Under the pieces are notes generated by a model. The model was not told the DNA's origin. It saw nothing but the letters and a program-made list of their open reading frames with translations, and searched no databases. Positions 2,947 to 42,441 of a DNA stretch of 50,903 nucleotides are shown here, piece after piece. The DNA is taken from the IMG/VR virus record IMGVR_UViG_3300037845_000048, positions 1 through 50,903 of that record; one strand, 5' to 3'. Position numbers and translations under genes: made by a program. The first letter of the stretch is position 1. Each line of letters starts with the position of its first letter. Source of the DNA: a virus. Lineage: Duplodnaviria; Caudoviricetes.

Positions 2947-5310
2947 CCCCCGAGACCCGAGCCGCACGCGACCGCCTAGCCCGATACGCCGGCCCCGACT
3001 TCCAGCCCCCGCCGATCGACCTCCCACGCCACCTCAACTGCCTCACCATCGCCGAAGTCGAACGCCTGATCGGCCGGATCGAGAGCGACATCCGCGACAC
3101 GCTCGCACCCGACATCCGGGCCATCGTCGAAGCGCTCGACCAGCACGACGAAGCCGAGAAAGACATCTGATGCAACCCCACGCGCAAGCCGCACGCGACA
3201 GGATCACCGCATACCTCGACGCCATGGCAGTCGACTCGCCGTGGGACTGGGAAATGGTCGGCCTCCACGGAACGAAACTCGAAAGCCGCGACCTGCGCCT
3301 GGTCCTGGCCGCGCTCGACCGGCGACCCACCGCCGTCATCGTCTGCGACCACACGCTCACCGAGGAACAGGCCGAAGACCTCAAACGCCGGTTCCTCGAA
3401 GCACAGCACGAGTCACCGATCCGCGACACGGCCGCAATCGTCCACCGCTACCTCAATCCGCCAGGCATGCCCTACGGCCTGACACCCCATCAGGCACCCG
3501 ACCGGTAACGGCCATGGACCAGATCGGCTGGTACATCGCCACCCTCCACGGGCTACTCGGCCACGACACGGCCGCCGCCGTGCTCGGCCAAGACCCCGGC
3601 GACAAGAACGCATGCGCACTCTGCGCCTACGAACGCGAACCCACACCCGAACACAAGCACGCGGTCGAGGCCGCCCTGACGCCAACCGGGAAAGCGAAGA
3701 CGACATGAGCGAGAGCCCCACATCCCGTTACCGCAAGAACCGGGCCAGGGCCTACCAGAACAAATTCGGCATCCGCTACACCCACGCCCTGCGCCTGGTC
3801 AACGCCGAGATGGAAGCACCCGACTTCGACCCGCGCTCACCGATCCCCGAGGAGCTGCCCGCGTGAACCGCTCAATCGTCTACGCGCGGCCCACCCCCGA
3901 AGGCATCGAGATCCTCTGCGACTGCGCCTTCACCACCGTGCTGGTCGTCGACGGCGTCCTAGAACGTGCCATCGAGCAGGCGTTCACCTGCGACGGATGC
4001 ATGACCGTCCACTGGTTCACCCTCACACCGAACAACCCGCAAACCTCCGATGACTCCGAAGCGAAAGGCACACAGTGACCATCCAAGTCGAGTTCACCGG
4101 CGACATAGTCCACATCTACGATGGCGACGGCACGCGCGCAGTCGAAGACACGCTCATCGTCACCGCCATGCAATGGGCACACCTCGTCGCGGCCATCCGC
4201 CTGCCGCCCCCCGAGGGCAGCGACGGTCATCCCCTCGTTCCTGCCTTTGCCGCCGCGTTCCTGTGCCCCTCCTGCCAGGGGCGCGGCACCGACCGCGACG
4301 GTTGCGCAGACTGCGACACGTGCAACGGCACTGGCTTATCCATCACCGAAAAGGACACGCAGTGACCGACACCACCGATGGACTCGGAGACCTCGCGGCC
4401 GAGCTCGCCGCCCTCGCCGCAGACACCACCGCGCAGATCACCGCGCTCGCCCAGCAACTCCAGCAGTTCATCATCCAAACCAGCCCACAATGCGCCACGT
4501 GCCTCGCCGAAGCACGCCAAGGAGCCCGGCCTGGCGCCAACCTCGTCAACGTCATCCTCGACGGCACCGGCTACTGCCACGACCATTGCGACGTCGTCAA
4601 CGGGCGGCTCGTGCCCAAGAAAAGCAGCGGCCTGATCGTCGCAGGAGGATGACGTGATCGGCACCTATTTCGCGCTCACCGGCGACGTCATCGCCCTCGC
4701 AGCCGCCTACTTCGCGCGCCGCGCAACCGTCCACCAGCGCCGCGCGCAACGCAAACTCGACGCCATCGCCGCCCTCGAAGTCCACGGCCGCGAATTCGTA
4801 GACGCCGCCCAGCTCTACGCCATCCTCGGCCGGCCCATCCCCGAACCGATCGACCACGCCGCCAACCTCCGTGCCAGAGTCGAACAGATCTTCACCCCCG
4901 GCCAACCCGACCCGCACAGTCCATACCGGAGCCCGTACACGTGAAGGCGTGCCCGGCGTGCGGAAGAGTGGTCGGCCTCTATTCGAACGGAAAACCGCCG
5001 CCCTCGCCTACCTCGGCGAGACACCATGAACGACCGGCGCCCGGCGTACCCCATCCCGGAATCCCTCACCATCCACCCCGCCGACCGCCACGAACTCAAC
5101 CGGCAACTACCCACCGCCACCGTCTACGGCCAACCCATCCACGGCAACACACCCATCATCGAAGACCCCGGCATGACGCCCGGGACACTACGCATCCGCA
5201 TCCAAGGCACCGACGCCACCGTCACCCTCGGACACCGGCCCACGCCGCGCTGGATACGCTGCGACCCCCACACCGGGCTACCCATCGGAGAACACGCGTT
5301 CGAAACGTGA
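2943..5310 (+). CDS. run of small coupled hypothetical genes (2943-3170, 3170-3508, 3514-3708, 3705-3866, 3863-4078, 4075-4365, 4362-4652, 4654-4944, 5026-5310)
   Basis: Mostly chained start/stop overlaps with RBS-like motifs and high GC3. No recognisable families. Confidence 0.55.
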
Positions 5311-13400: not shown

Positions 13401-15524
13401 GACACACCGGGATGTGCGCGTGATCGGAGCGGGAGATGACTGACCTCGACCAGGCCATTCGCGCCCGGCTGGACCACCTCTACAAGCAGGGCGGATCTTC
13501 GCCGCGACAGCTGCGTGCCGCGCTGCTCGGCGTACTGGCCTTCCATCAACCGGAGGATACGGACTTCACAGACGCCGATGGCCAGTCCCGCTCCAGCACT
13601 GACTGTGCGACCTGCGATAACGGCGGAGTCCCCGGGAACTGGCCATGCTCCACGCTGCGCACGATCGCCGAGAAACTGGGAATCGAACATGACTGACCTG
13701 AACGGAGCGACCATGACCCAACCCGGCGTTCTCGAACGCATCGCCACCGCACTCGAAACCATCGCCGCCATGCTCACCGGCGAAACCCCCACCACCCCCG
13801 CCGCGCGCACGCCACGCCACCCCGAGACCCGGTTCGAATGGGAACCCGCCGCCGACCAGGCCCCCGCCGCACCCCTGCCCGAACCCACGCCCCCCGAAGA
13901 ACGGTGCGGGTTCCTCATCGAGAAATACACCCACCCCCTGGACCGCGTCACCCCCGTCTACCAGATCAGCAAAGCCGGGGCCACCATCCTGCTCACCGAG
14001 CAGGAGGCCACGGCGCTGGCCGCACTCAGCGACGAGGAGTTCACGGGGGTCATGGCCGCCCGGCTCGCCGAAGTACTCGCCCAACGGCACGCCGCAGCGG
14101 CGGCGACGCCCGCGCCGTCCGCGGCGGATGACATCGAGGACGAAGACGAGGCGCGCGAGCGCCAATGGGCGCGCACGTTCAACGCCCACCCCGACCCCGA
14201 CGAAGCAGCGCGCACATGACCGGCGTCCTGCTGTTCGTGGTCGTGTTCGCGGCGTTCTACCCGCTCGGGGTGCTTCGCGCGAGGCTGCGCCCGGGGCCGT
14301 ACGCTCGACCCCATGCACACCACCACCGAAACGAGTCCCGCCGGCGCCGGGGCCGTGCCCGATCTGCGCCGCATGCCGCTCGGGAAGGCGGCGCCGGGGC
14401 CGGCGGTCCGGCTGGTGCGGCGACTGCTGCGCGACGAGGTCGTTGCGGCGGCGCAGTTCCAGTCCTCAGTCTGACCGCCGGCACCATGCGCACGCGTCCC
14501 CGCATTCCGACGCCGCGCCTAAACTCGAACCCATCCAACCGAGCCGACCAGGGAGTACCCGTGAGCGTTTTCTCCGAGATCGCCGCCGAAGCCGAGACCT
14601 TCAAGACGAAGCTCGCCGCCGATGCCGGGCATCTGCTCGGCGAGTTCGAGGCCCTGTGGGGCAAGCTGACCGATCAGGCCATGACCGACGGCGCTGATGT
14701 CATCAAGAAGGTCGAGCCCGTGGCCGCCGCGGCGGAAGCGGACGCGGCCGGGCTCGCCGGTGAGGCCGTGGCCGGTGCCGAGGGCATCGTGGACCCGGCG
14801 AAGCCGAGCGCCTGATGGGCACCGTGCCGAGTGTCGGCCGCGTCGTGCACTACGTCTCGCACGGCACCCCAGTCCGCGCCGACGGGACGCAGGCGTTCCA
14901 GAGCGTTTGCCGCACCGCGCTGATCACCGAGGTGGGCGAATGGCCCGAAGGGATCAGCGAAGCCGACCGCAGCAACATCGCCGTCCCCGTCGGGCTCGCC
15001 GTGCTCAACCCCACCGGCATGTTCTTCCAGCAGGGATGCATGCAGAGCGAGCTCGGCCACGAGGGCGGCTCGTGGCACTGGCCCGAGCGCGTCTAGCGCC
15101 CAGAAGGGAAGCACTGGCATGGAATGGACCTGGCAGATCGTCTACAACCCTGCGGCGCCTATCGACTCCGTCACGGCCGCCGCCCTCGAAGTCGACGAGA
15201 TCTCCTACGACCTGGTCGACGCGCAGGGCGCCGTGGTGTGGTCCGCACCGACCGGCAGCGTGCGCAACGTGACCCGGGGCGACGCCGTCACGCCGCCGAC
15301 CACCCAGAACGCGCCGGGGTCCTGACGTGGCGGAGCGCAGCGAGCACCTGAGCGACCCCGAGGGCACCGCAACCCACCGCCGCACCGGCCGAGGCGGCGA
15401 CGGCGAGATCTCCCAGAGCACCAGCGACGCACGCTACGACCAGGTGCAGGACGCCACCGCGAACGGCGACCCGGACGGTGTCGGGGACACGGCGCGCGGC
15501 TGGTTCCGCCGGTCGCGCAACTAA
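10494..15524 (+). CDS. rightward run of about 20 small hypothetical genes (e.g. 10494-10670, 10672-10863, 10865-11197, 11199-11426, 11428-11655, 11657-11980 wHTH-like, 11982-12170, 12172-12471, 12658-12870, 12867-13121, 13114-13443, 13436-13696, 13689-14219, 14561-14815, 14815-15096, 15119-15325, 15327-15524)
   Basis: Tightly chained TGA-n-ATG/GTG junctions and high GC3. Individual starts are approximate. Confidence 0.55.
10672..11519 (+). repeat. 92-bp direct repeat (10672-10763 and 11428-11519)
   Basis: Both copies start at an ATG (MAQAFGN...FEAIA) and differ at 4 positions. Confidence 0.9.
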
Positions 15525-15538
15525 CCGGTAGAGACGAG

Positions 15539-15575
15539 GAGAGCCGCATCCCGCGCTGGGGGGGATGCGGCTCTC
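15539..15575. terminator. hairpin terminator between convergent units
   Basis: GAGAGCCGCATCCC...GGGATGCGGCTCTC, a 14-bp perfect stem. Confidence 0.8.
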
Positions 15576-15618
15576 TGCGTGCTGCACTCGCGGCGCACGC
15601 CAACCGGAATCACCGGTA

Positions 15619-15690
15619 GCGCCTCGACGGGACTCGAACCCGCGCCTCTCCCCTCGAACGGGGAGCGCCCTGCCATTAGGCCACGAGACT
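15619..15690 (-). tRNA. tRNA-like gene or pseudo-tRNA with atypical anticodon loop
   Basis: - strand: acceptor GTCTCG/CGAGGC, D-arm GCCTAATGGCAGGGC, anticodon stem CTCCC/GGGAG with 8-nt loop CGTTCGAG, T-arm GCGGG-TTCGAGT-CCCGT. No encoded CCA. Confidence 0.65.
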
Positions 15691-15786
15691 GGGCCGCATG
15701 CACGCTGTCGGCCGAAACGGGAAATGTCCCTCAGCGGCTGCCTGCCGTGACTGCCACGGTAGCAGCGGCGGTGTCAGCGCGGGACG

Positions 15787-16326
15787 CTACCCTGCGCGCT
15801 CCTCCAGCTCCCCGAGACGCCGCTTGAGCTCCGCGATCTCCTCTTCCGTGCGCTCCCCGCGCTCCATCACCGCGTCCAGCGCCTTCTCCGTGCGGCGCTG
15901 GCGCCCGGCGAGGCGGCGGTTGATCTCCATCTGCTCCGCGAACCCCCGCGCGACCACCTCGAACGCCTTGCGCACCTCCGGGTCGGCGTCGGACAGGTCC
16001 ACGTTCGTGGCCTTCGAGTACGCCATCTCCAATTGCGCCCCGGCGCGGCGCCCATGGGTGTGTGCGAGGCGCAGCTGCCCGTTCACGTCCACGACCCGGT
16101 AGCCCTCGTTGCGCACCCCCTCGATCGCGCGCTTGTCCTTCTCCTCGTGTTCTTCGGCCGCGCGCCGCATGGCGGTGATCATCGCGGAGCGGTGGCGCAC
16201 CGGGTCGAGGCCGAGGGCGTCGGCCATCGCCTGGTAGGTCACGATCCCGCCGACGGGGGTGCCCTTGAGCAGCCGGTAGAGGACCTTCCATCGCGGTTCG
16301 TCGCCAAGCGGTTCGAACGGGCTCAC
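15787..16326 (-). CDS. wHTH-like plus coiled-coil accessory protein coupled to the RAMP-like gene
   Basis: GTGA overlap with the stop at 16323. 'VTYQAMADALGLD...VRNEGYRVV' is wHTH-like; the C-terminus is a coiled coil. Confidence 0.7.
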   Translation of the reverse strand: MSPFEPLGDEPRWKVLYRLLKGTPVGGIVTYQAMADALGLDPVRHRSAMITAMRRAAEEHEEKDKRAIEGVRNEGYRVVDVNGQLRLAHTHGRRAGAQLEMAYSKATNVDLSDADPEVRKAFEVVARGFAEQMEINRRLAGRQRRTEKALDAVMERGERTEEEIAELKRRLGELEERAG

Positions 16327-16928
16327 GACACGTCCTTGACGACGGTCAGCGTGCCCTCGAAGCGCCCGTAGCGCGGGCGCCAGTCCCCGAGGCCGATGAG
16401 GCGCCCGGCGATGTCCACGAGCTGCGTGAGGTCGTCGTAGTCGAGGACTTCTGTGTCGAGGTAGAGCATCGCGGAAGTTCGCCACGAGTTGTCGGAGTTC
16501 TTGGGATCAACCGGAAACTTCGGCCGGGTGCGGATGATGCGCTGCTGTCCGACTTTCGCGGAGGCCTGGAGCATGAAGTTGCCGTCGCGCCACAGCTCGT
16601 CGGGTTCGCGGGGGCCTTTGTAGGCGAGGGGGTTCTCGTCGGTGGTGATGATGACGCCGGAGGTGACTTTGACGCCGAGTTTGCGTTTGCGGCCTGCGTC
16701 GACGAGGCAGCGGAAGATGTTGTCGGCGGGGATGTAGGGGCCGACGGGGCCGTTGTAGAGGCCGCCGAGGAATTCGAGGCGGGCGAGTTCGAGGTAGTCG
16801 TCTTCGGATTTGCTGCGTTTGGCGCTGACTTTCTTCATGGCGCGGGCGAGTTCGTCGAGGGGGTTGGAGAGTCGGGCGTTGTGCATGAGGAGTGGTGCGG
16901 TGCCGGTGATGTCGAGTTTGAGGTCCAT
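16323..16928 (-). CDS. stand-alone Cas7/RAMP-like RNA-binding protein (Vipr-like)
   Basis: 201 aa from ATG 16928 (ACAGGACGG RBS). Motifs 'ITGTAPLLMHN', 'PYIPADNIFRCLVDAG', 'RTRPKF..W' and the G-rich loop 'IGLGDWRPRYGRF' occur in RAMP order. Confidence 0.75.
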   Translation of the reverse strand: MDLKLDITGTAPLLMHNARLSNPLDELARAMKKVSAKRSKSEDDYLELARLEFLGGLYNGPVGPYIPADNIFRCLVDAGRKRKLGVKVTSGVIITTDENPLAYKGPREPDELWRDGNFMLQASAKVGQQRIIRTRPKFPVDPKNSDNSWRTSAMLYLDTEVLDYDDLTQLVDIAGRLIGLGDWRPRYGRFEGTLTVVKDVS

Positions 16929-16950
16929 CGGGTTCCGTCCTGTAGTGGTG

Positions 16951-17616
16951 ACCATGCCTAGGCCTGCCGGGCCTGGACCTGCCATGCCGAGTCACGCCCG
17001 GCAGAGCCCTGCGGAGCCGAGGGCTGCCCTGCCATGCACGGTCGAGCCATGCGCAGCCCTGCGTGCGTGTCCGGGATTCGGACCCGGATATATGCCGTCC
17101 GCGCTGGTGGAACCCATGCCGTGCCCTGCCGGGCGCTGACTCGCCGCGACACGCCGCGCGTTGCCTTGACCCGCCTAGCGTGGCCAAGTCCCGCCAGGCC
17201 ATGCGTTGCCCCGACATGCCGGGACGCGCCTCGCCGGGAGGAACACGCACGTGGTCACGCGCGCACTCCACTCGAAGAGGAACCCAAGCCGGGCCTAGAC
17301 CTGCCCTGACAAGCCATGCCGCGTCCTGCCGTGCCCTGCGTGTGTGCCGGGGACTCGGACCCCGGGGTATGCCGTCCACACGGTGAAACCCAAGCCCTGC
17401 AATGCCCGACCAAGCCCAGCCGTTGCCACGCCGCGCCATGGCTTGCCCGGCCGGGACTCGCCCCGCCCAGAGACCCGTGCGCGGACCACGCCGCACGGGA
17501 ATCACCCGAAGGGGAACCAAGCCGAAGCCAAGCCGGGCCTCGCGGAGCCTAGACCGGCCTCGCCATGCCCCGGCTCGCGCTGCCCGGCGCTGCCCTGCAT
17601 CGCATAGCCGCGCCAC
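16951..17616 (-). ncRNA. array of five pentamer-periodic (NN-GGC) tracts with structured spacers; putative guide-RNA array
   Basis: Tracts 16951-17060 (22 units), 17113-17237 (25), 17283-17337 (11), 17389-17469 (16) and 17516-17616 (20). + strand units are mostly GCCNN. Confidence 0.85.
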
Positions 17617-17635
17617 ACGCCGCCGCGTGTCATTA

Positions 17636-17665
17636 ACCATAGCACCACGCCAGTTCGCACGTGAA
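17636..17665 (-). promoter_or_regulatory. putative promoter for the array and RAMP operon
   Basis: TTCACG-18 nt-TATGGT with an extended TG (TGCTATGGT, 17644-17636). It is followed by the hairpin ACACGC-GGCG-GCGTGT. Confidence 0.55.
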
Positions 17666-17815
17666 ACCGCGCGATAAAACACTACGAAACCCACCTGTTG
17701 CCACCCGCGCAACACGCTGACCAGCCGCTACCGCCTGCCTAATCAGCGATGTACCCTCACCATCAGGCGCACTGACAATGCGCCATACTCAGCATCGAGG
17801 GGAGGCGGCGGTCCG

Positions 17816-18082
17816 ATGTCGGTCGGCACCATCACCCCCCCGCGCAACGCCGCCAGACCCCGGGACAGGTGGCGAAGCGCACGCACGGCACTCGACGCGG
17901 CGAGGCGTAGAGGTGCCACGGTGGTCGGCGCGGTGCGGCACCACAACTGGAGCCCCGCGCTGACCATCAGCGGACTCTCCTGCATCGACGCCGCGTTCTA
18001 CCAGCACGGGTGGTTCGCCGGACTCCTCGCCACCGGCATCAGCGCCCTGGTCTACGACTGGTCCCGCGAGCGCGGCGCATGA
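17816..18082 (+). CDS. small membrane protein preceding portal
   Basis: GGGGAGG RBS, two hydrophobic segments, ATGA overlap with portal. Confidence 0.6.
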   Translation: MSVGTITPPRNAARPRDRWRSARTALDAARRRGATVVGAVRHHNWSPALTISGLSCIDAAFYQHGWFAGLLATGISALVYDWSRERGA

Positions 18083-23106: not shown

Positions 23107-23372
23107 GCGAGGCCCAGGTCCAGATCTCCGAGGTCACCCCCGAGCTGATCCGTGCGGCGATCAAGCGCGGTGATCGGCTGATGGTGTTCGACGGCGGGGA
23201 GCCGATCGCGCTGATCACGGGTGCGGCGGCGGAGCTCGGGCGGCGTAGGGATTTCTTCGTGCATTACCCGCATGAGGCGTCGGAGTGTTTCGGTACGTGC
23301 TGGCGGCACGACGGGCGCGCGGAGGCCGAGGCGGTCCCGGCCGGTTCCGGGCCGGTTCCGGTTCCCGCGTAG
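23103..23372 (+). CDS. hypothetical protein
   Basis: ATGA overlap and GAGG RBS. Confidence 0.55.
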   Translation: MSEAQVQISEVTPELIRAAIKRGDRLMVFDGGEPIALITGAAAELGRRRDFFVHYPHEASECFGTCWRHDGRAEAEAVPAGSGPVPVPA

Positions 23373-23379
23373 GCATGAG

Positions 23380-23874
23380 ATGGCGTGGCGCAGCAGGTCG
23401 CGGCGCAGGGCGAAGAGGAGGGCGTATGTGCACCGGCGCGGATATCACATCCACCATCGGGTGCATCACCGCTTCCACCATGTGCGCTTCCACCACGTGC
23501 GCAAGCACAGGGTGCGGTTCCACCATGTCCGCAAGCACCACATCCGGTTCCACCACGTCCGTAAGCATCACGAGCGTCCGCATCACGAGCGCCGCAGGCA
23601 CCATGCGCGGGCACACCGGGCGCGGCGTGCGAGGCGCCGCGCGATGGCCGCGCGGCACCAGCTGCACCGCCACCCCGGCCCGCACCGCCCGCGCACCGGG
23701 CATCCGCGGCACCGAGTGGTGGGGATCCGGCAGCACCGGGCGCACATGCGCCGGCGTTACCGGGCGCAGGTCGGGCGGCTGCGCAAGCCGCGCCACCACT
23801 ACCGCCCGCAGGTGGGGCGCCTTAAGAAGCATCGCGGCTACCGGGCGCAGACCGGGAAGCTGCGCCGCAGGTGA
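23380..23874 (+). CDS. Arg/His-rich protamine-like repeat protein
   Basis: 164 aa: 51 R, 35 H, 8 K, 2 E, 0 D by manual count. Synonymous variation between the peptide repeats supports this frame. Confidence 0.7.
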   Translation: MAWRSRSRRRAKRRAYVHRRGYHIHHRVHHRFHHVRFHHVRKHRVRFHHVRKHHIRFHHVRKHHERPHHERRRHHARAHRARRARRRAMAARHQLHRHPGPHRPRTGHPRHRVVGIRQHRAHMRRRYRAQVGRLRKPRHHYRPQVGRLKKHRGYRAQTGKLRRR

Positions 23875-38002: not shown

Positions 38003-38659
38003 ATGGGCATCGCAGAACGCTTCTGGAGTAAAGTGGACACCTCGGGTCCTTGCTGGGAATGGACCGCCGCGAAACAGCTAGGTTACGGGGTGTGCTGGAA
38101 CGGTGTCCGCACGATGGGAGCGCACCGCTGGGCATGGGAATATCTAGTAGGTCCGATACCTGAAGGCCTTGAGATCGATCACCTATGCCGTAATCGGGCG
38201 TGCGTTAATCCGGATCATCTCGAGCCAGTCACACATGAAGAGAACGTGCGGCGAGGTGCTGGGGGATGGAATACCGCGGCCGTGACGCACTGTCCCCAGG
38301 GGCATGAATACTCCGGCGACAATGTTTTCGTGAGCCGAGGCTCTCGGCGTTGTCGAAAATGCGCCAGAGAAAGAGATCGGGAAAAATATGTGCCAGTCCC
38401 CCGCCAAGAGCCGACGCATTGCCCTCAGGGGCATGAATATAACGAAGAGAATACGGGGTGGAAGAAGGGAAAGCACAGATGGTGTCGCGCCTGCGACCGA
38501 GCTCGCTATATCGCCCATCCTCTGCCAAAGGTCGCGGAGTGCCCGAGGGGGCATCCATACAGCGGGGAGAATCTGGTGATCGACTCGGCGGGCTACCAGC
38601 GATGCCGGAAGTGCGAGCGGGAGCGCTCGCGTCGGCGATCCAAGACCGCGAGTCTGTGA
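38003..38659 (+). CDS. HNH homing endonuclease with three C-terminal CPxGHxY zinc-finger repeats
   Basis: 'RFWSKVD..GPCWEW', 'AHRWAW', 'IDHLCRNRACVNPDHLE'. Lower GC than flanks. Confidence 0.9.
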   Translation: MGIAERFWSKVDTSGPCWEWTAAKQLGYGVCWNGVRTMGAHRWAWEYLVGPIPEGLEIDHLCRNRACVNPDHLEPVTHEENVRRGAGGWNTAAVTHCPQGHEYSGDNVFVSRGSRRCRKCARERDREKYVPVPRQEPTHCPQGHEYNEENTGWKKGKHRWCRACDRARYIAHPLPKVAECPRGHPYSGENLVIDSAGYQRCRKCERERSRRRSKTASL

Positions 38660-39423: not shown

Positions 39424-39978
39424 ATGGCGCAGGACGTGTTGCCGGGGCTCGGCGATATCGGGATCGTGACGGTGCGCGGCGCGGGCGGCTGGCTGGTCGG
39501 GCTGGGCGAGCGGCTGGCGGGCGGGGGGCGCAACACGAGGTGGCGGCACGCGTTCGTCGTCACGGGGGTGGGGGTGGCGCGGGAGTTGACGCGGATCGTG
39601 GAGGCGGAGCCTTCGGGGGCGCGGGAGTCGGCGCTCTCGGAGTATCCGCCGGGTGCGGTGTTGTGGCTGCGCTGCCCGGATCAGTATCGGGAGGGCGTCG
39701 CTGCGGCTGCGTCGGCGATGGTCGGGACGAAGTATTCGTGGCTCGACTATGTGGCGGTGGCGTTGCACCATTGGGGCATCAACGCCGGGTGGCTGGAGCG
39801 GTATGTGGGGGCGAAGGGGCACGAGATGTGCAGTGCTCTCGCTGATGAGGCGGCGCGCAGGGGTGGCTGGCATCTGTTCGGCGCGCAGGCGGTTCCGCCG
39901 TCGGCGGGTGTTTGGGCTGGTGATGTGATGCCGGCGGATTTGGCTGCGCTAGCGGAGAAGCAGGGAGACGCGGCATGA
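39424..39978 (+). CDS. permuted NlpC/P60 (YiiX/YaeF-like) peptidase/amidase
   Basis: 'GDIGIV...WRHAFV...IVEAEPSG...GTKYSW...MCSAL', with His before Cys. Confidence 0.7.
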
Positions 39979-40508
39979 CCCTTGAAGACCTCTCGGTTCT
40001 GGACGCGCACAAGGCGGCGAGGTTCGCTCCGGGCTATCCGCCGCTGGTCAGGACGTTTTACAGCCCAGTCGACGATGTCCATGCGGCCCTCGTGGATCTG
40101 ATCAAGTCGGCGCGCACGAGCCTGGTGGTTGCGGTCTACGGCTTCGATGATGACGAGCTGGCCGAGGCGTTGCACGAGAAGCTGGACGACGAGCGCGTGT
40201 TCGTGCAGCTCACGCTTGATTCCAGCCAGGCGGCCGGGGTGCACGAGCGGGCGCTGTTGGCGAAGGACGCGTTCCCGTCGAACTCGGTGGTGGCCGGGCG
40301 CTCGGAGAAGGGCGCCATCATGCATCTTAAGATGCTTATTGTCGATAGCTTGGATGTGGTGACCGGTTCGACGAACTGGTCCACGAGCGGCGAGTCCCTT
40401 CAAGACAATCAACTCACTGTCATCAGAGACCCGCTGGTAGCGGCCGAGGCCCGCACCCGGGTTGACATGATTCATACGCATATGCTCACGGCTGCGGCGA
40501 AGAAGTGA
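39975..40508 (+). CDS. phospholipase D-family (Nuc-like) protein
   Basis: Single HKD motif 'MHLKMLIVD...TGSTNWS...QDN'. Confidence 0.85.
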
Positions 40509-41986: not shown

Positions 41987-42441
41987 ACGCGGGGCCGCTG
42001 CTCGGGCCTTCCGGGCGCCGCGTGGGGTTGCGGGTGGTGCTGCGGCGCCAGTGCTATGAGGCGGGGGCGGCGGTGGCGTGCCTGTCGGGGGCGGTGGAGG
42101 CGTTCACGGGGCGCGGGAGCACGGTGGCGGCGCTGGTGTTCCCGTGGTGGGGGCTGCGGTTGGCGGGGTTGATGCTGGCGGGGGGCGGTGCGTGTACGTT
42201 GGCGGGCCTGGGTGGGGCGGGTCTTCTGGTGGACGACGTGCGGCGGGTGCTGGCGCGGCGGGTGGAGCAGTTGGGGCAGTTCGTGCAGGCGATTCTGCTG
42301 GTGGTTCTCGGGGCTGGTGCGTTGTCGCGGGGTTACAGTGGTGTGATCTTCGGTGCGGTGTTCTGCGGTGTGGGGGTGGGGGCGTTGGTGAGGGGTTGGG
42401 AGATCTCCAAGTCGTTCGCCGACGCGGGGAAGCTGCTGTGA
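41983..42441 (+). CDS. multi-TM membrane protein
   Basis: About four hydrophobic helices; GTGA overlap. Confidence 0.55.
   Translation: MNAGPLLGPSGRRVGLRVVLRRQCYEAGAAVACLSGAVEAFTGRGSTVAALVFPWWGLRLAGLMLAGGGACTLAGLGGAGLLVDDVRRVLARRVEQLGQFVQAILLVVLGAGALSRGYSGVIFGAVFCGVGVGALVRGWEISKSFADAGKLL

Follow-up and report, generated by a model that had tools for sequence, protein, structure and literature searches.

What is an array of five-nucleotide units doing beside a lone, small Cas7-like gene in a phage genome that carries no recognizable cas genes? The locus lies in virus record IMGVR_UViG_3300037845_000048 (50.9 kb, 93% complete, 69% G+C); the window that we analyzed is the whole stretch of 50,903 nucleotides. 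Terminase, portal, capsid, tape-measure and endolysin genes are present in the record, and its source is an uncultured soil siphovirus-like phage of high-GC actinobacteria. We conclude, with a probability of about 0.9, that the locus is a VIPR (Viral Interference Programmable Repeat) system, an already published kind of system that was first described in 2026 preprints (bioRxiv 10.64898/2026.04.26.720920 and 10.64898/2026.04.26.720927), and very probably a complete one, made up of five guide RNAs, a gene for a small Cas7-like protein and a helper gene whose product is putatively DNA-binding. An earlier, sequence-only reading had suggested such a match; VIPR is indeed in print, and the protein encoded here is a sequence homologue of the solved SUSP1 Vipr protein.

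Organization of the locus

The whole VIPR unit occupies 2.1 kb of the minus strand within the structural gene region, and all five guides lie upstream of vipr. The array, the 201-aa protein and the overlapping second gene that the sequence-only reading had described are each where it had placed them. vipr (16323..16928, minus strand) encodes a 201-aa RAMP protein from an ATG at 16928, and the vap1-like gene, vap (15787..16326, minus strand; 179 aa), starts at a GTG (16326) that overlaps the vipr stop codon as GTGA. What had been claimed as a ~670-nt array of NN-GGC units resolves into five tracts of 22, 16, 11, 25 and 22 units in register, a total of 96 CNNGG units on the vipr strand. These are, from upstream to downstream on the minus strand, vrRNA1 (17517..17627; 14 of its 22 units perfect, with a 1-nt register slip before the last two), vrRNA2 (17390..17469; 12 of 16 perfect, one unit being 6 nt long), vrRNA3 (17284..17338; 8 of 11 perfect), vrRNA4 (17114..17238; 15 of 25 perfect, in a single register) and vrRNA5 (16952..17061; 13 of 22 perfect, also in a single register).

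The edges of the unit are less sharply drawn. A promoter had been claimed, and this was not confirmed: a sigma-70 consensus scan returned no sites, and all that can be read by eye is a weak promoter-like site (17636..17665, minus strand), below the scan threshold, in which TTCACG (17665-17660) is separated by an 18-nt spacer from an extended -10, TGcTATGGT (17644-17636). On the downstream side, 97 nt after vap and on the same strand, is an aberrant tRNA gene (15619..15690) with an 8-nt anticodon loop; ARAGORN reports it as "tRNA-???", and the Rfam tRNA alignment (44.7 bits) has an inserted base in the anticodon loop. Going by its position, this odd gene is perhaps part of the VIPR unit. It is followed by a strong hairpin (15539..15575, minus strand) with a 14-bp stem and a folding z score of -3.72, which none of 200 shuffled sequences folded as well as. 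This hairpin may mark the end of the transcription unit; it has no U-run and was not called by a terminator scan.

The claimed absence of cas genes and CRISPR repeats was upheld, in that none of the 67 ORFs of the record matched a Cas model in PADLOC (vipr and vap were also without any PADLOC match) and no CRISPR-like repeats were found in the record. An identity as a class 1 CRISPR-Cas system was rejected on these grounds. The likeness to the class 1 backbone proteins (Csm3, Cmr4, Cas7 of types III and VII, and Cas7-11) is confined to the Cas7-like fold; sequence identity is 9 to 17%, and no sequence-level match was obtained even with a profile. Class 1 effectors, moreover, have a period of 6 RNA and 6 target nucleotides, whereas that of VIPR is 5 and 3, and the present locus lacks not only CRISPR repeats but cas1, cas2, cas10 and other cas genes, its guides being hard-wired rather than acquired.

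The Vipr protein and its accessory gene

The protein matched PDB chain 36pp_D ("SUSP1 Vipr protein") by phmmer over residues 3-191 (E = 1.9e-26), and a profile of the Vipr family matched the same chain at 5.3e-50 and no other chain; a Pfam search gave no match. An AlphaFold2 model (pLDDT 94.6, pTM 0.88) yielded 71 Foldseek matches at E <= 0.001, and all 36 of those listed are entries for the effector complexes of type III and type VII CRISPR systems. The modeled fold is Cas7-like and contains the minimal RAMP fold of RRM core, G-loop and thumb, as the sequence-only reading had anticipated from the order of its motifs, which align with strand 1 of SUSP1 Vipr (bearing the His), with helix 1 and with the G-loop. 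In the alignment, H16, K32, R38, R135, D182, W183 and R184 correspond to SUSP1 H17, K33, R39, R138, D177, W178 and R179. The SUSP1 preprints report that these counterparts contact G1, G2, Y3 or DNA and that most mutations in them abolish or reduce silencing, and, from cryo-EM, that H17, R138, D177, W178 and R179 read G1, G2 and Y3 (bioRxiv 10.64898/2026.04.26.720920 and 10.64898/2026.04.26.720927; main text). Among 40 homologues, four of these residues (H16, R135, W183 and R184) do not vary, and conservation of K32 and D182 is 90% or higher, R38 falling in neither class; the Y3-pocket residues E71 and M72 of SUSP1 are D69 and N70 here. The earlier proposal that a lone Cas7-like protein grips a constant GGC and displays the variable NN is thus consistent with the conservation of the GGC-reading residues relative to SUSP1.

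The accessory gene is related to the vap1-type family of Felixounavirus in a profile-profile comparison (hhalign, 98.5%, E = 4e-15) and to gp33 of Mycobacterium phage LittleE (31% identity, E = 8e-23). In 39 of 111 loci, the gene immediately downstream of vipr is a vap homologue. Since wV8 gp95 is the counterpart of SUSP1 Vipr (E = 6e-128), its downstream neighbor gp94 stands in for vap1 in these comparisons. The sequence-only reading had called the gene translationally coupled and its product a winged-helix/coiled-coil protein. The GTGA overlap with the vipr stop codon was confirmed, but the fold rests on a weak Pfam match (PF01035, E = 0.054) together with the vap1 homology, and the vap profile found no relative among solved structures, only coiled-coil noise. 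Neither Pfam nor the profile-profile comparison revealed a nuclease signature in vap, which, with its likeness to vap1, agrees with the suggestion of a nuclease-free complex. With its vap1-like gene and a Vipr directly similar to that of SUSP1, the locus points tentatively to VIPR type II.

Like the type II system of SUSP1 and Felixounavirus (PDB 36pp; bioRxiv 10.64898/2026.04.26.720920 and 10.64898/2026.04.26.720927), the present locus has a Vipr of ~200 aa that can be aligned end to end and keeps the GGY-reading residues, a vap1-family gene directly downstream of vipr, and same-strand YNNGG tracts followed by tails (the fifth guide here excepted), in a phage genome without cas genes. It differs in that its Vipr is 33% identical to the Felixounavirus orthologues (tblastn) and carries eight extra residues (139-146) behind the thumb strand relative to SUSP1, in that all five guides are upstream of vipr, and in that about one-third of the units are degenerate. 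The unit in wV8 is T-NN-GG, whereas here it is nearly always C-NN-GG; published tracts have 9 to 16 repeats, compared with 11 to 25 units here. The closest cultured relatives are Mycobacterium phage LittleE (gp34-gp33) and Gordonia phages Trine and MakoManhole, whose Vipr proteins are 51 to 53% identical and are annotated as hypothetical. In LittleE, gp33 belongs to the same vap family and the locus is likewise inside the structural gene region, and both LittleE and Trine have pentamer arrays and tRNA-like tails (36 to 55 bits with the covariance model, R1, described below). Unlike the present phage, LittleE has its genes flanked by arrays on either side, and a small additional hairpin precedes each of its tRNA-like tails; in Trine the guides separate vipr from vap and fall within what is the 5' portion of gene 40 in the GenBank annotation.

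Proposed mode of action and targets

A single minus-strand transcript starting at ~17630 would carry the five vrRNAs, vipr, the vap1-like gene and perhaps the odd tRNA, and would end at the strong hairpin. On the model of SUSP1, each CNNGG unit would be bound by one Vipr protomer, with a pair of neighboring protomers using His16, Arg135 and the G-loop Asp182-Trp183-Arg184 to flip out and sequester G-G-C; both N bases would stay exposed on the filament, which would read double-stranded DNA as NN-x-NN-x, skipping one base per unit. The R-loop triplex so formed would block transcription without cutting, and the Vap1-like protein, a putative winged-helix protein, would boost silencing. Guides of 11 to 25 units would read 32 to 74 bp, and the presumed targets are rivals within the same actinobacterial host (competing phages, prophages or satellites). 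That Vipr of the actinophage clade binds RNA, skips one base per unit and silences, and what it is aimed at, are inferred; the main text of the VIPR preprints contains no experiments that we could find on a Vipr of this clade.

Natural targets have been defined by a threshold of 80% NN match (bioRxiv 10.64898/2026.04.26.720920 and 10.64898/2026.04.26.720927; main text). When the five guides were searched at skips of 0 to 3 against the phage's own genome, the best skip-1 matches reached 54 to 68%, below that threshold, and self-targeting was thus not indicated; the sole standout was a skip-3 self-match at the array, which is trivial. Against 130 loci (600 kb), no guide did better than the null given by shuffled guides. 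Exact seeds were built from perfect units only; a target with any mismatch in the seed is missed by such a search, and sensitivity was low. vr1, vr3, vr4 and vr5 were searched in viral_contigs and vr1, vr4 and vr5 in genome_contigs, with no matches or matches at chance level; vr2, whose 6-nt unit makes the register ambiguous, was left unseeded. A vr4 seed of 22 specified bases had no match in either set, and its 16-base version had 10 viral matches, all of which extended to only 22 to 30 of 50 positions. The 16-base vr3 seed also had 10 viral matches, all at 17 to 18 of 22 and mostly in low-GC contigs. For vr5 (18 bases) there were no viral and seven genomic matches (22 to 27 of 44), and for vr1 (18 bases) no viral and two genomic matches (22 to 25 of 40). 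Finally, a 30-base vr4 pattern allowing up to three mismatches was found in none of five named relatives and in none of 401 genomes of one class. Since exact seeds tolerate no mismatch and the searches could not be aimed at a named host, these negatives are no evidence against the existence of targets.

An alternative that we consider unlikely, albeit the best placed of the three discussed here, is that a VIPR-type ribonucleoprotein acts on RNA (the transcripts of competitors or host), or chiefly on the host's genes as a means of takeover, and not on competitor DNA. The SUSP1 filament does also pair with single-stranded RNA targets, and no DNA target emerged from the phages and genomes that we searched, in searches of low sensitivity that could not be aimed at a named host. 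However, with an ssRNA target most SUSP1 filaments were left incomplete, the triplex requires DNA, and the natural targets in print are satellites and prophages (bioRxiv 10.64898/2026.04.26.720920 and 10.64898/2026.04.26.720927; main text). Moreover, R38 and R80 of the present protein correspond to SUSP1 R39 and K82, the residues that clamp the non-target DNA strand, and this clamp has been kept. We favor a VIPR system directed at DNA.

Guide array, tails and processing

The pentamer signal is far above what shuffled sequence produces. Between 17665 and 16929 we counted 26 GGY triplets spaced 5 nt apart, versus 4.9 +/- 2.2 (maximum, 14) in 1000 dinucleotide shuffles, and the GGY periodicity exceeds that of every other 737-nt window of the record. 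Minus-strand chains of at least 5 units number six in the 50.9-kb record, all within 16951-17571; the only other chain, a GGY chain at 42150 on the plus strand, is inside coding sequence and was attributed to chance. TRF reported only weak rows, with periods of 10 and 14. Of the 96 units, 92 begin with C and 95 with a pyrimidine, positions 2 and 3 are near-even in composition, and G occupies position 4 in 80 units and position 5 in 78. Tandem YNNGG units, of which VIPR requires at least four flanking vipr on its own strand, are present, 62 of the 96 units being perfect. In the last guide, only 9 of 28 NN positions match those of the closest relative, L030, although vipr is 79% identical in DNA, and the tail start and leader are still recognizable between the two loci. 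Both the composition and this comparison reveal a constant scaffold with hypervariable NN.

It is very unlikely, in our view, that the array is a decaying, nonfunctional remnant whose degenerate guides no longer load Vipr, the protein having some other role. The degeneracy that suggests decay is real (34 of 96 units lack the GG), no targets were found, and the only clear relatives of tails A1 and A2 are in L030. Against this, register is held over 11, 25 and 22 units in the last three tracts, the initial C or pyrimidine is almost universal, with every unit of vr3 to vr5 beginning with C, degenerate ones included, and 32 of the 34 degenerate units retain one G at position 4 or 5. Degenerate units are also dispersed, with 4 adjacent pairs observed versus 10.7 +/- 2.2 expected (P ~0.0009); that they avoid one another points to selection on the whole tract. 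Related loci are equally degenerate, internal degeneracy is frequent in VIPR arrays according to the discovery paper (bioRxiv 10.64898/2026.04.26.720920 and 10.64898/2026.04.26.720927; main text), the RNA-reading residues of Vipr are intact, and an RNA-library contig covers guides 1 and 2. We regard the array as probably a working VIPR array in which, given the units without GG, part of each guide may load Vipr poorly or the code may differ.

The contig in question, from a soil metatranscriptome (X3), is 291 nt long (17329-17619; depth 8.9, no differences) and covers guides 1 and 2 only; it comes from the contigs of one library, in which strand and ends are not readable and DNA carry-over is possible. 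Over the rest of 15500-17900 the library has one 35-nt scrap with 3 mismatches and nothing else, and such gaps in coverage prove nothing. With the same caveat on ends, the contig starts 17 nt downstream of the -10 and corresponds, within ~9 nt at either end, to vr1, A1, vr2 and B1. In a second run (X4), coverage is confined to 16705-16869, with 5 differences, and the source is probably the DNA of a relative.

That the 5-nt periodicity is a by-product of GC-rich coding, with a 402-aa ORF (17715-16507) spanning the region in this 69% G+C record and no RNA array at all, can be dismissed: period 5 does not fit codons, a signal of this strength was reached by none of 1000 dinucleotide shuffles and by no other 737-nt window of the record, chains of five or more units lie beside vipr, on its strand, in 27 of 28 viral-contig loci with a vipr homologue (chains on the opposite strand occur in 4 loci, with 5 units each), the tails covary as RNA helices, and the homologous family starts at ATG 16928 rather than upstream. 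The flanking arrays that the sequence-only reading had proposed to look for beside homologues are therefore present in nearly all of these loci. The 402-aa ORF is spurious, the guides of Trine are hidden within an annotated CDS, and VIPR loci are evidently easy to misannotate.

Two kinds of tail separate the guides. Tails B1 (17338..17389, minus strand; 71.3 bits with covariance model R1) and B2 (17061..17113, minus strand; 56.8 bits) are tRNA elbow mimics, each with an acceptor-like stem and a T-arm, conserved with covariation across the actinophage clade. B1 has a 5-bp acceptor-like stem (GTGTG/CACAC), a 12-nt linker with a conserved GG, a T-arm-like CGGGG-TCCGAGT-CCCCG and then ACGC, its final C being the first base of vrRNA3; in B2 the stem is GCGCG/CACGC (4 of 5 pairs) and the T-arm CCGGG-TCCGAAT-CCCGG. 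The T-arm follows what we take to be the G53/T54/C56/A58/C61 pattern (tRNA numbering), and a conserved RCGC comes after it. Across 40 B-tail sequences the helices are 98% paired, a figure biased upward by the requirement that both stems be paired for inclusion, and contain 78 double changes versus 14.2 in shuffles. R1 had 46 hits, all on the vipr strand and 26 of them outside the training alignment; a search of the whole record found no further tail and hence no solo vrRNA, and the wV8 locus gave no match. The possibility that B1 and B2 are full tRNAs was rejected, since Rfam at E <= 1 matches only 15619-15690 and none of its families matches the tails between guides, in which just the acceptor-like stem and T-arm are present. 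ARAGORN calls two related tails (in L006 and L014) tRNAs.

The other two tails are putative double hairpins. A1 (17470..17516, minus strand) has a small CCC-TTC-GGG hairpin followed by an 8-bp hairpin, and A2 (17239..17283, minus strand) a CTC-TTC-GAG hairpin followed by a GC-rich hairpin with the loop GACC. Just three examples of the type are available (A1, A2 and L030) and the folding z score of A1 is -0.67, so its structure is putative. Single-sequence folding of the four tails (A1, -0.67; A2, -2.09; the B tails, +0.28 and -0.45) is not better than that of shuffles, and tail B is thus supported by covariation only. Both types differ from the pseudoknot tail of SUSP1. The fifth guide has no tail; in its place is an unstructured leader (16929..16951, minus strand; z +1.92) that retains the start of a B tail (TCACC...GGACGG) and in which AGGACGG, 8 nt ahead of the ATG, acts as the ribosome-binding site. 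A last guide that continues into the ribosome-binding site of vipr is likewise seen in L004, L006, L009, L017, L030 and L113.

One tentative possibility is that the elbow mimic, with its GG linker replacing the D-loop, is a 3' cap by which host RNase P and RNase Z cut the five-guide precursor. In addition, the A hairpins may be internal, leaving two tracts per mature RNA, and the tail-less fifth guide may serve as the vipr leader, on which a filament would throttle translation. Other VIPR arrays are hammerhead interspersed or staggered (figure legends S18-S19 of the discovery paper; bioRxiv 10.64898/2026.04.26.720920 and 10.64898/2026.04.26.720927). These are like the present array in yielding several guides from one array, separated by a structured element with a possible role in processing. 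The element here, 52 nt long, mimics an acceptor stem and T-arm and is not a ribozyme or a complete tRNA. If the cap does direct processing by host enzymes, multiguide VIPR arrays would mature without a Cas6-like nuclease or ribozyme, in a natural counterpart of engineered tRNA-gRNA arrays, and a compact design for multiplexed guides would be suggested.

Elbow-mimic tails, tracts longer than 9 to 16 repeats, dispersed degenerate units and a last guide that runs into the vipr ribosome-binding site were not found in the main text of the VIPR preprints. The 2.1-kb unit, its guides of up to 25 units (~74 bp), the conserved tRNA-like cap and the dispersed degenerate units offer handles for study, and Mycobacterium phage LittleE, on M. 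smegmatis, is a cultured relative that can be used for testing. With this locus, the recently described RNA-guided DNA binders of the VIPR class gain a member from an uncultured high-GC soil phage.

Identity of the locus and its proteins

The discovery paper defines VIPR in its main text as a minimal RAMP protein (Vipr), a vap gene, and vrRNAs of alternating GGY and NN with a conserved 3′ tail, found mostly in viruses and lacking both cas genes and CRISPR arrays (10.64898/2026.04.26.720920). The minus-strand locus studied here is a member of this already published kind, because its features match that definition. The sequence-only reading had described a pentamer array, a lone RAMP-like gene and a coupled accessory gene. 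These parts were all confirmed (a 5-nt array beyond that of 1,000 shuffles, a Vipr homologue and an overlapping second gene), and the VIPR interpretation is supported. PADLOC found no Cas protein among 67 ORFs, and the record contains no CRISPR-like repeats.

The vipr product (16928-16323, minus strand; 201 amino acids) hit no family in a Pfam search and is a member of phrog_4652 (function unknown; E = 2.6e-52). One solved structure was matched, PDB 36pp chain D, the Vipr protein of the Felixounavirus-type reference system SUSP1 (E = 1.9e-26, residues 3 to 191); this was also the sole chain matched by a 40-homologue profile (E = 5.3e-50). According to the cryo-EM report on SUSP1, H17 and D177 read G1, R138 and W178 hold G2, R179 lies in the pyrimidine pocket, K33 contacts the target-strand backbone and R39 the nontarget strand, and several alanine mutants lose silencing (10.64898/2026.04.26.720927). 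In our alignment these residues correspond to H16 and D182, R135 and W183, R184, K32, and R38, respectively; across the family each is invariant or nearly invariant, except R38, which falls in neither class. An alignment-based AlphaFold2 model was confident (pLDDT 94.6, pTM 0.88) and yielded 71 Foldseek matches at E ≤ 0.001 in a PDB copy released up to 2026-04-08. The predicted likeness to Cas7, Csm3 and Cmr4 was borne out, because the 36 matches listed all belong to effector complexes of CRISPR types III and VII.

Vipr has 776 homologues at E ≤ 0.001. By tblastn it was found in 130 phage records, including Gordonia phages Trine and MakoManhole and Mycobacterium phages LittleE and prophiBWHA-1 (45 to 53% identity), as well as many Felixounaviruses (33%).

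The vap gene (15787-16326, minus strand) starts at a GTG at 16326 that overlaps the vipr stop, and encodes 179 amino acids with at most a weak winged-helix match (PF01035, E = 0.054); type II Vap proteins are described as winged-helix-like in a figure legend of the discovery paper (10.64898/2026.04.26.720920). In 39 of 111 related loci the gene that immediately follows vipr is a vap homologue, and gp33 of LittleE is 31% identical (E = 8e-23). In Felixounavirus wV8, gp95 is essentially the SUSP1 Vipr (E = 6e-128) and gp94 is the gene downstream of it. By profile comparison vap is vap1-like, because its family profile matches that of gp94 and three relatives (98.5% probability, E = 4e-15). From this vap1-like gene, together with the direct similarity to SUSP1 Vipr, we infer that the system is VIPR type II.

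Guide tracts and tails

GGY triplets spaced at 5 nt number 26 in the region 17665-16929, versus 4.9 ± 2.2 (maximum, 14) in 1,000 dinucleotide-preserving shuffles. On the minus strand the whole record contains six chains of 5 or more units, all within 16951-17571; the sole other chain, at 42150 on the plus strand, was set aside as lying inside coding sequence. The check for 5-nt arrays beside homologues, proposed with the earlier reading, was positive: in 27 of 28 viral-contig loci, GGY chains of 5 units or more adjoin the vipr homologue on its own strand (the exception, L021, has none), versus opposite-strand chains, of 5 units each, in 4 of 28.

Reading the region backwards from each tail gave five minus-strand tracts: vr1 (17627-17517; 22 units and a single 1-nt slip), vr2 (17469-17390; 16 units, including one of 6 nt), vr3 (17338-17284; 11 units), vr4 (17238-17114; 25 units) and vr5 (17061-16952; 22 units). 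Of the 96 units, 92 begin with C; the second and third bases are near even in composition, and G occupies position 4 in 80 and position 5 in 78. Perfect YNNGG is seen in 62 units; among the 34 degenerate ones, 32 keep one G, and the leading C is kept in every unit of vr3 to vr5. Adjacent degenerate pairs number 4, versus 10.7 ± 2.2 under permutation (P about 0.0009), so degenerate units avoid one another. Such dispersal speaks against decay and for selection that acts on entire tracts.

Tract vr5 has no tail; in its place an unstructured sequence (folding z = +1.92) leads into the vipr ribosome-binding site, and the same guide-into-leader layout recurs in L004, L006, L009, L017, L030 and L113. 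In L030, the closest relative with flanking DNA (vipr 79% identical at the DNA level), the last-guide NN agree at 9 of 28 positions, which is chance level; despite this, the tail start and leader are still recognizable. We also observed a 402-amino-acid open frame (16507-17715, minus strand) that spans the whole guide array and extends into vipr, and which gene callers could annotate as a protein.

Two kinds of tail alternate between the tracts. A tails (17516-17470 and 17283-17239, minus strand) consist of a small Y-rich/TTC/R-rich hairpin and then a longer one; a look-alike was found in L030 only, which is thin evidence. In B tails (17389-17338 and 17113-17061, minus strand), a 5-bp stem encloses, in order, a 12-nt linker, a 5-bp hairpin and a single free base, and its 3′ strand is followed by RCGC; the hairpin carries a 7-nt loop, T-Y-C-R-A-N-Y, closed by G-C. 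A pattern search of related loci, requiring the loop consensus and pairing of both stems, found such elements at 55 places, all but a few of them after pentamer tracts. In a 40-element alignment, cells changed on both sides of the two helices numbered 78, versus 14.2 ± 3.1 in shuffles and 11 to 16 with the partner slid. The 98% pairing and the loop T, C and A were imposed by the selection pattern; outside it are the G-C closing pair (40/40), the linker GG (38/40 and 39/40) and RCGC (37 to 40 of 40).

A covariance model built from this alignment (R1) found only the two B tails in the window (71 and 57 bits; next match, 19.9 bits). When 51 loci were scanned, 21 contained matches, 46 in total and every one on the same strand as vipr, with some elements duplicated under two locus identifiers; 26 of the 46 are absent from the training alignment. 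It found no B-type tail in the Felixounavirus locus, where the wV8 (SUSP1-type) tail differs, being another, pseudoknot-type sequence. The closing G-C pair, T-loop pattern and GG linker resemble the elbow that the tRNA T arm forms with the D loop. ARAGORN called two related B-type tails tRNAs, and the Rfam tRNA model did not match the window's own B tails at E ≤ 1. The B tails are tRNA mimics, not tRNAs. We found no mention of such a resemblance in the main text of the VIPR papers searched.

Gene 40 of Trine (3591-4394 of L110; same DNA as L014), annotated as a 267-amino-acid hypothetical protein, overlaps in its 5′ third a pair of pentamer tracts, at 3632-3691 and 3756-3800, and a pair of tRNA-like tails, which R1 matched at 3696-3760 and 3805-3869. 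It resembles the vap family from residue about 121 onward only, and the coding sequence is probably overextended across vrRNAs.

Transcription and genome setting

A consensus promoter scan of the locus found none; by eye, a promoter-like site (TTCACG-N18-TGcTATGGT) lies at 17665-17636 (minus strand). In a soil metatranscriptome (X3), one 291-nt contig (depth, 8.9; 0 differences) falls on 17329-17619, spanning vr1, the first A tail, vr2 and the first B tail. The only other match in the 2.4 kb at 15500-17900, most of which two DNA runs cover, was a 35-nt scrap with three mismatches. This single-library contig, which carries neither strand nor true ends, would be consistent with an abundant small RNA whose start lies shortly after the -10 of that site. 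A strong hairpin (15575-15539; z = -3.72) may end the transcription unit.

The locus is also carried, with 0 differences, by several contigs of X2, another soil sample that belongs to a separate study, and the same or a near-identical phage therefore recurs in soil. The DNA runs X1 and X2 also held 30- to 35-nt pieces with 2 or 3 mismatches (at 15954-15988, 16202-16237 and 16956-16989), which derive from other organisms' contigs.

Downstream of vap by 97 nt, on the same strand, is a tRNA gene (15619-15690, minus strand) with a full cloverleaf (Rfam, 44.7 bits), an 8-nt anticodon loop (one extra base; ARAGORN, “tRNA-???”), one acceptor-stem mismatch and no encoded CCA. Possible roles for this gene are as a decoy or frameshift-type tRNA, or as a signal for processing located where the VIPR transcript ends. 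The VIPR loci L010, L036, L041 and L038 adjoin phage tRNA clusters (His, Ser, Cys, Trp, Ala), and three of them have an opposite-strand tRNA-Met just downstream of the last guides.

The window spans an IMG/VR virus record in full (50,903 bp; 93% complete; 69% G+C), and its genes include those for terminase, portal, protease, major capsid, tape measure and endolysin; the VIPR locus lies between a small-gene block and the portal gene, antisense to the surrounding structural genes. The host is probably an actinomycete, since the nearest capsid protein is that of Streptomyces phage Dagobah (45.6% identity) and the cellular-genome Vipr homologues belong to Actinomycetes (an uncultured MAG, Planomonospora, Streptosporangium, Pseudoclavibacter and Piscicoccus). 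Elsewhere, a 177-amino-acid ORF directly upstream of the endolysin (39975-40508, plus strand) has PADLOC matches to DrmC-type (phospholipase-D-like nuclease) models (best E, 9.7e-12). A 40-nt element occurs three times at 38284-38572 (plus strand), spaced at 120 to 129 nt, between the 767-amino-acid tail gene and the next genes, where no ORF is called; in each copy CATGAATA follows a palindromic, CCCCAGGGG-like core, and the set may be a repeated operator or promoter. A 15-nt periodic repeat at 23464-23582 (plus strand; five 44-nt copies offset from one another by 15 or 30 nt) lies within ORF 23221-23874 and encodes a histidine-rich pentapeptide repeat.

Targets, proposed mechanism and significance

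The published criterion for a natural target is an NN match of at least 80% under a 1-nt skip (10.64898/2026.04.26.720920). The best own-genome scores of the five guides (15/22, 27/50, 25/44, 19/32 and 24/44) all fell within shuffled-guide nulls, giving no sign of self-targeting in the phage's own genome, and the systems of the discovery paper are likewise reported without it (10.64898/2026.04.26.720920). Nothing stood out in 130 fetched loci. Insensitive searches gave zero or chance-level matches (seed-and-extend against IMG/VR contigs and one genome per species) and none for vr4 with mismatches tolerated (5 named relatives; 401 genomes of one class).

We propose the published mechanism here because it transfers by homology. 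One Vipr protomer would occupy each unit, two neighboring protomers would sequester GGC, and NN would be presented to the target, so that double-stranded DNA would be read as NN-x; the resulting R-loop triplex would repress transcription, an effect that Vap1 would enhance.

What is notable about this locus is the tRNA elbow-mimic tail common to the actinophage clade, the length of the tracts and the dispersal of their degenerate units, the joining of the last guide to the vipr leader, and the environmental RNA contig over vr1 and vr2. LittleE offers a cultured model in which the tails, tracts, leader-fused guide and RNA can be tested.
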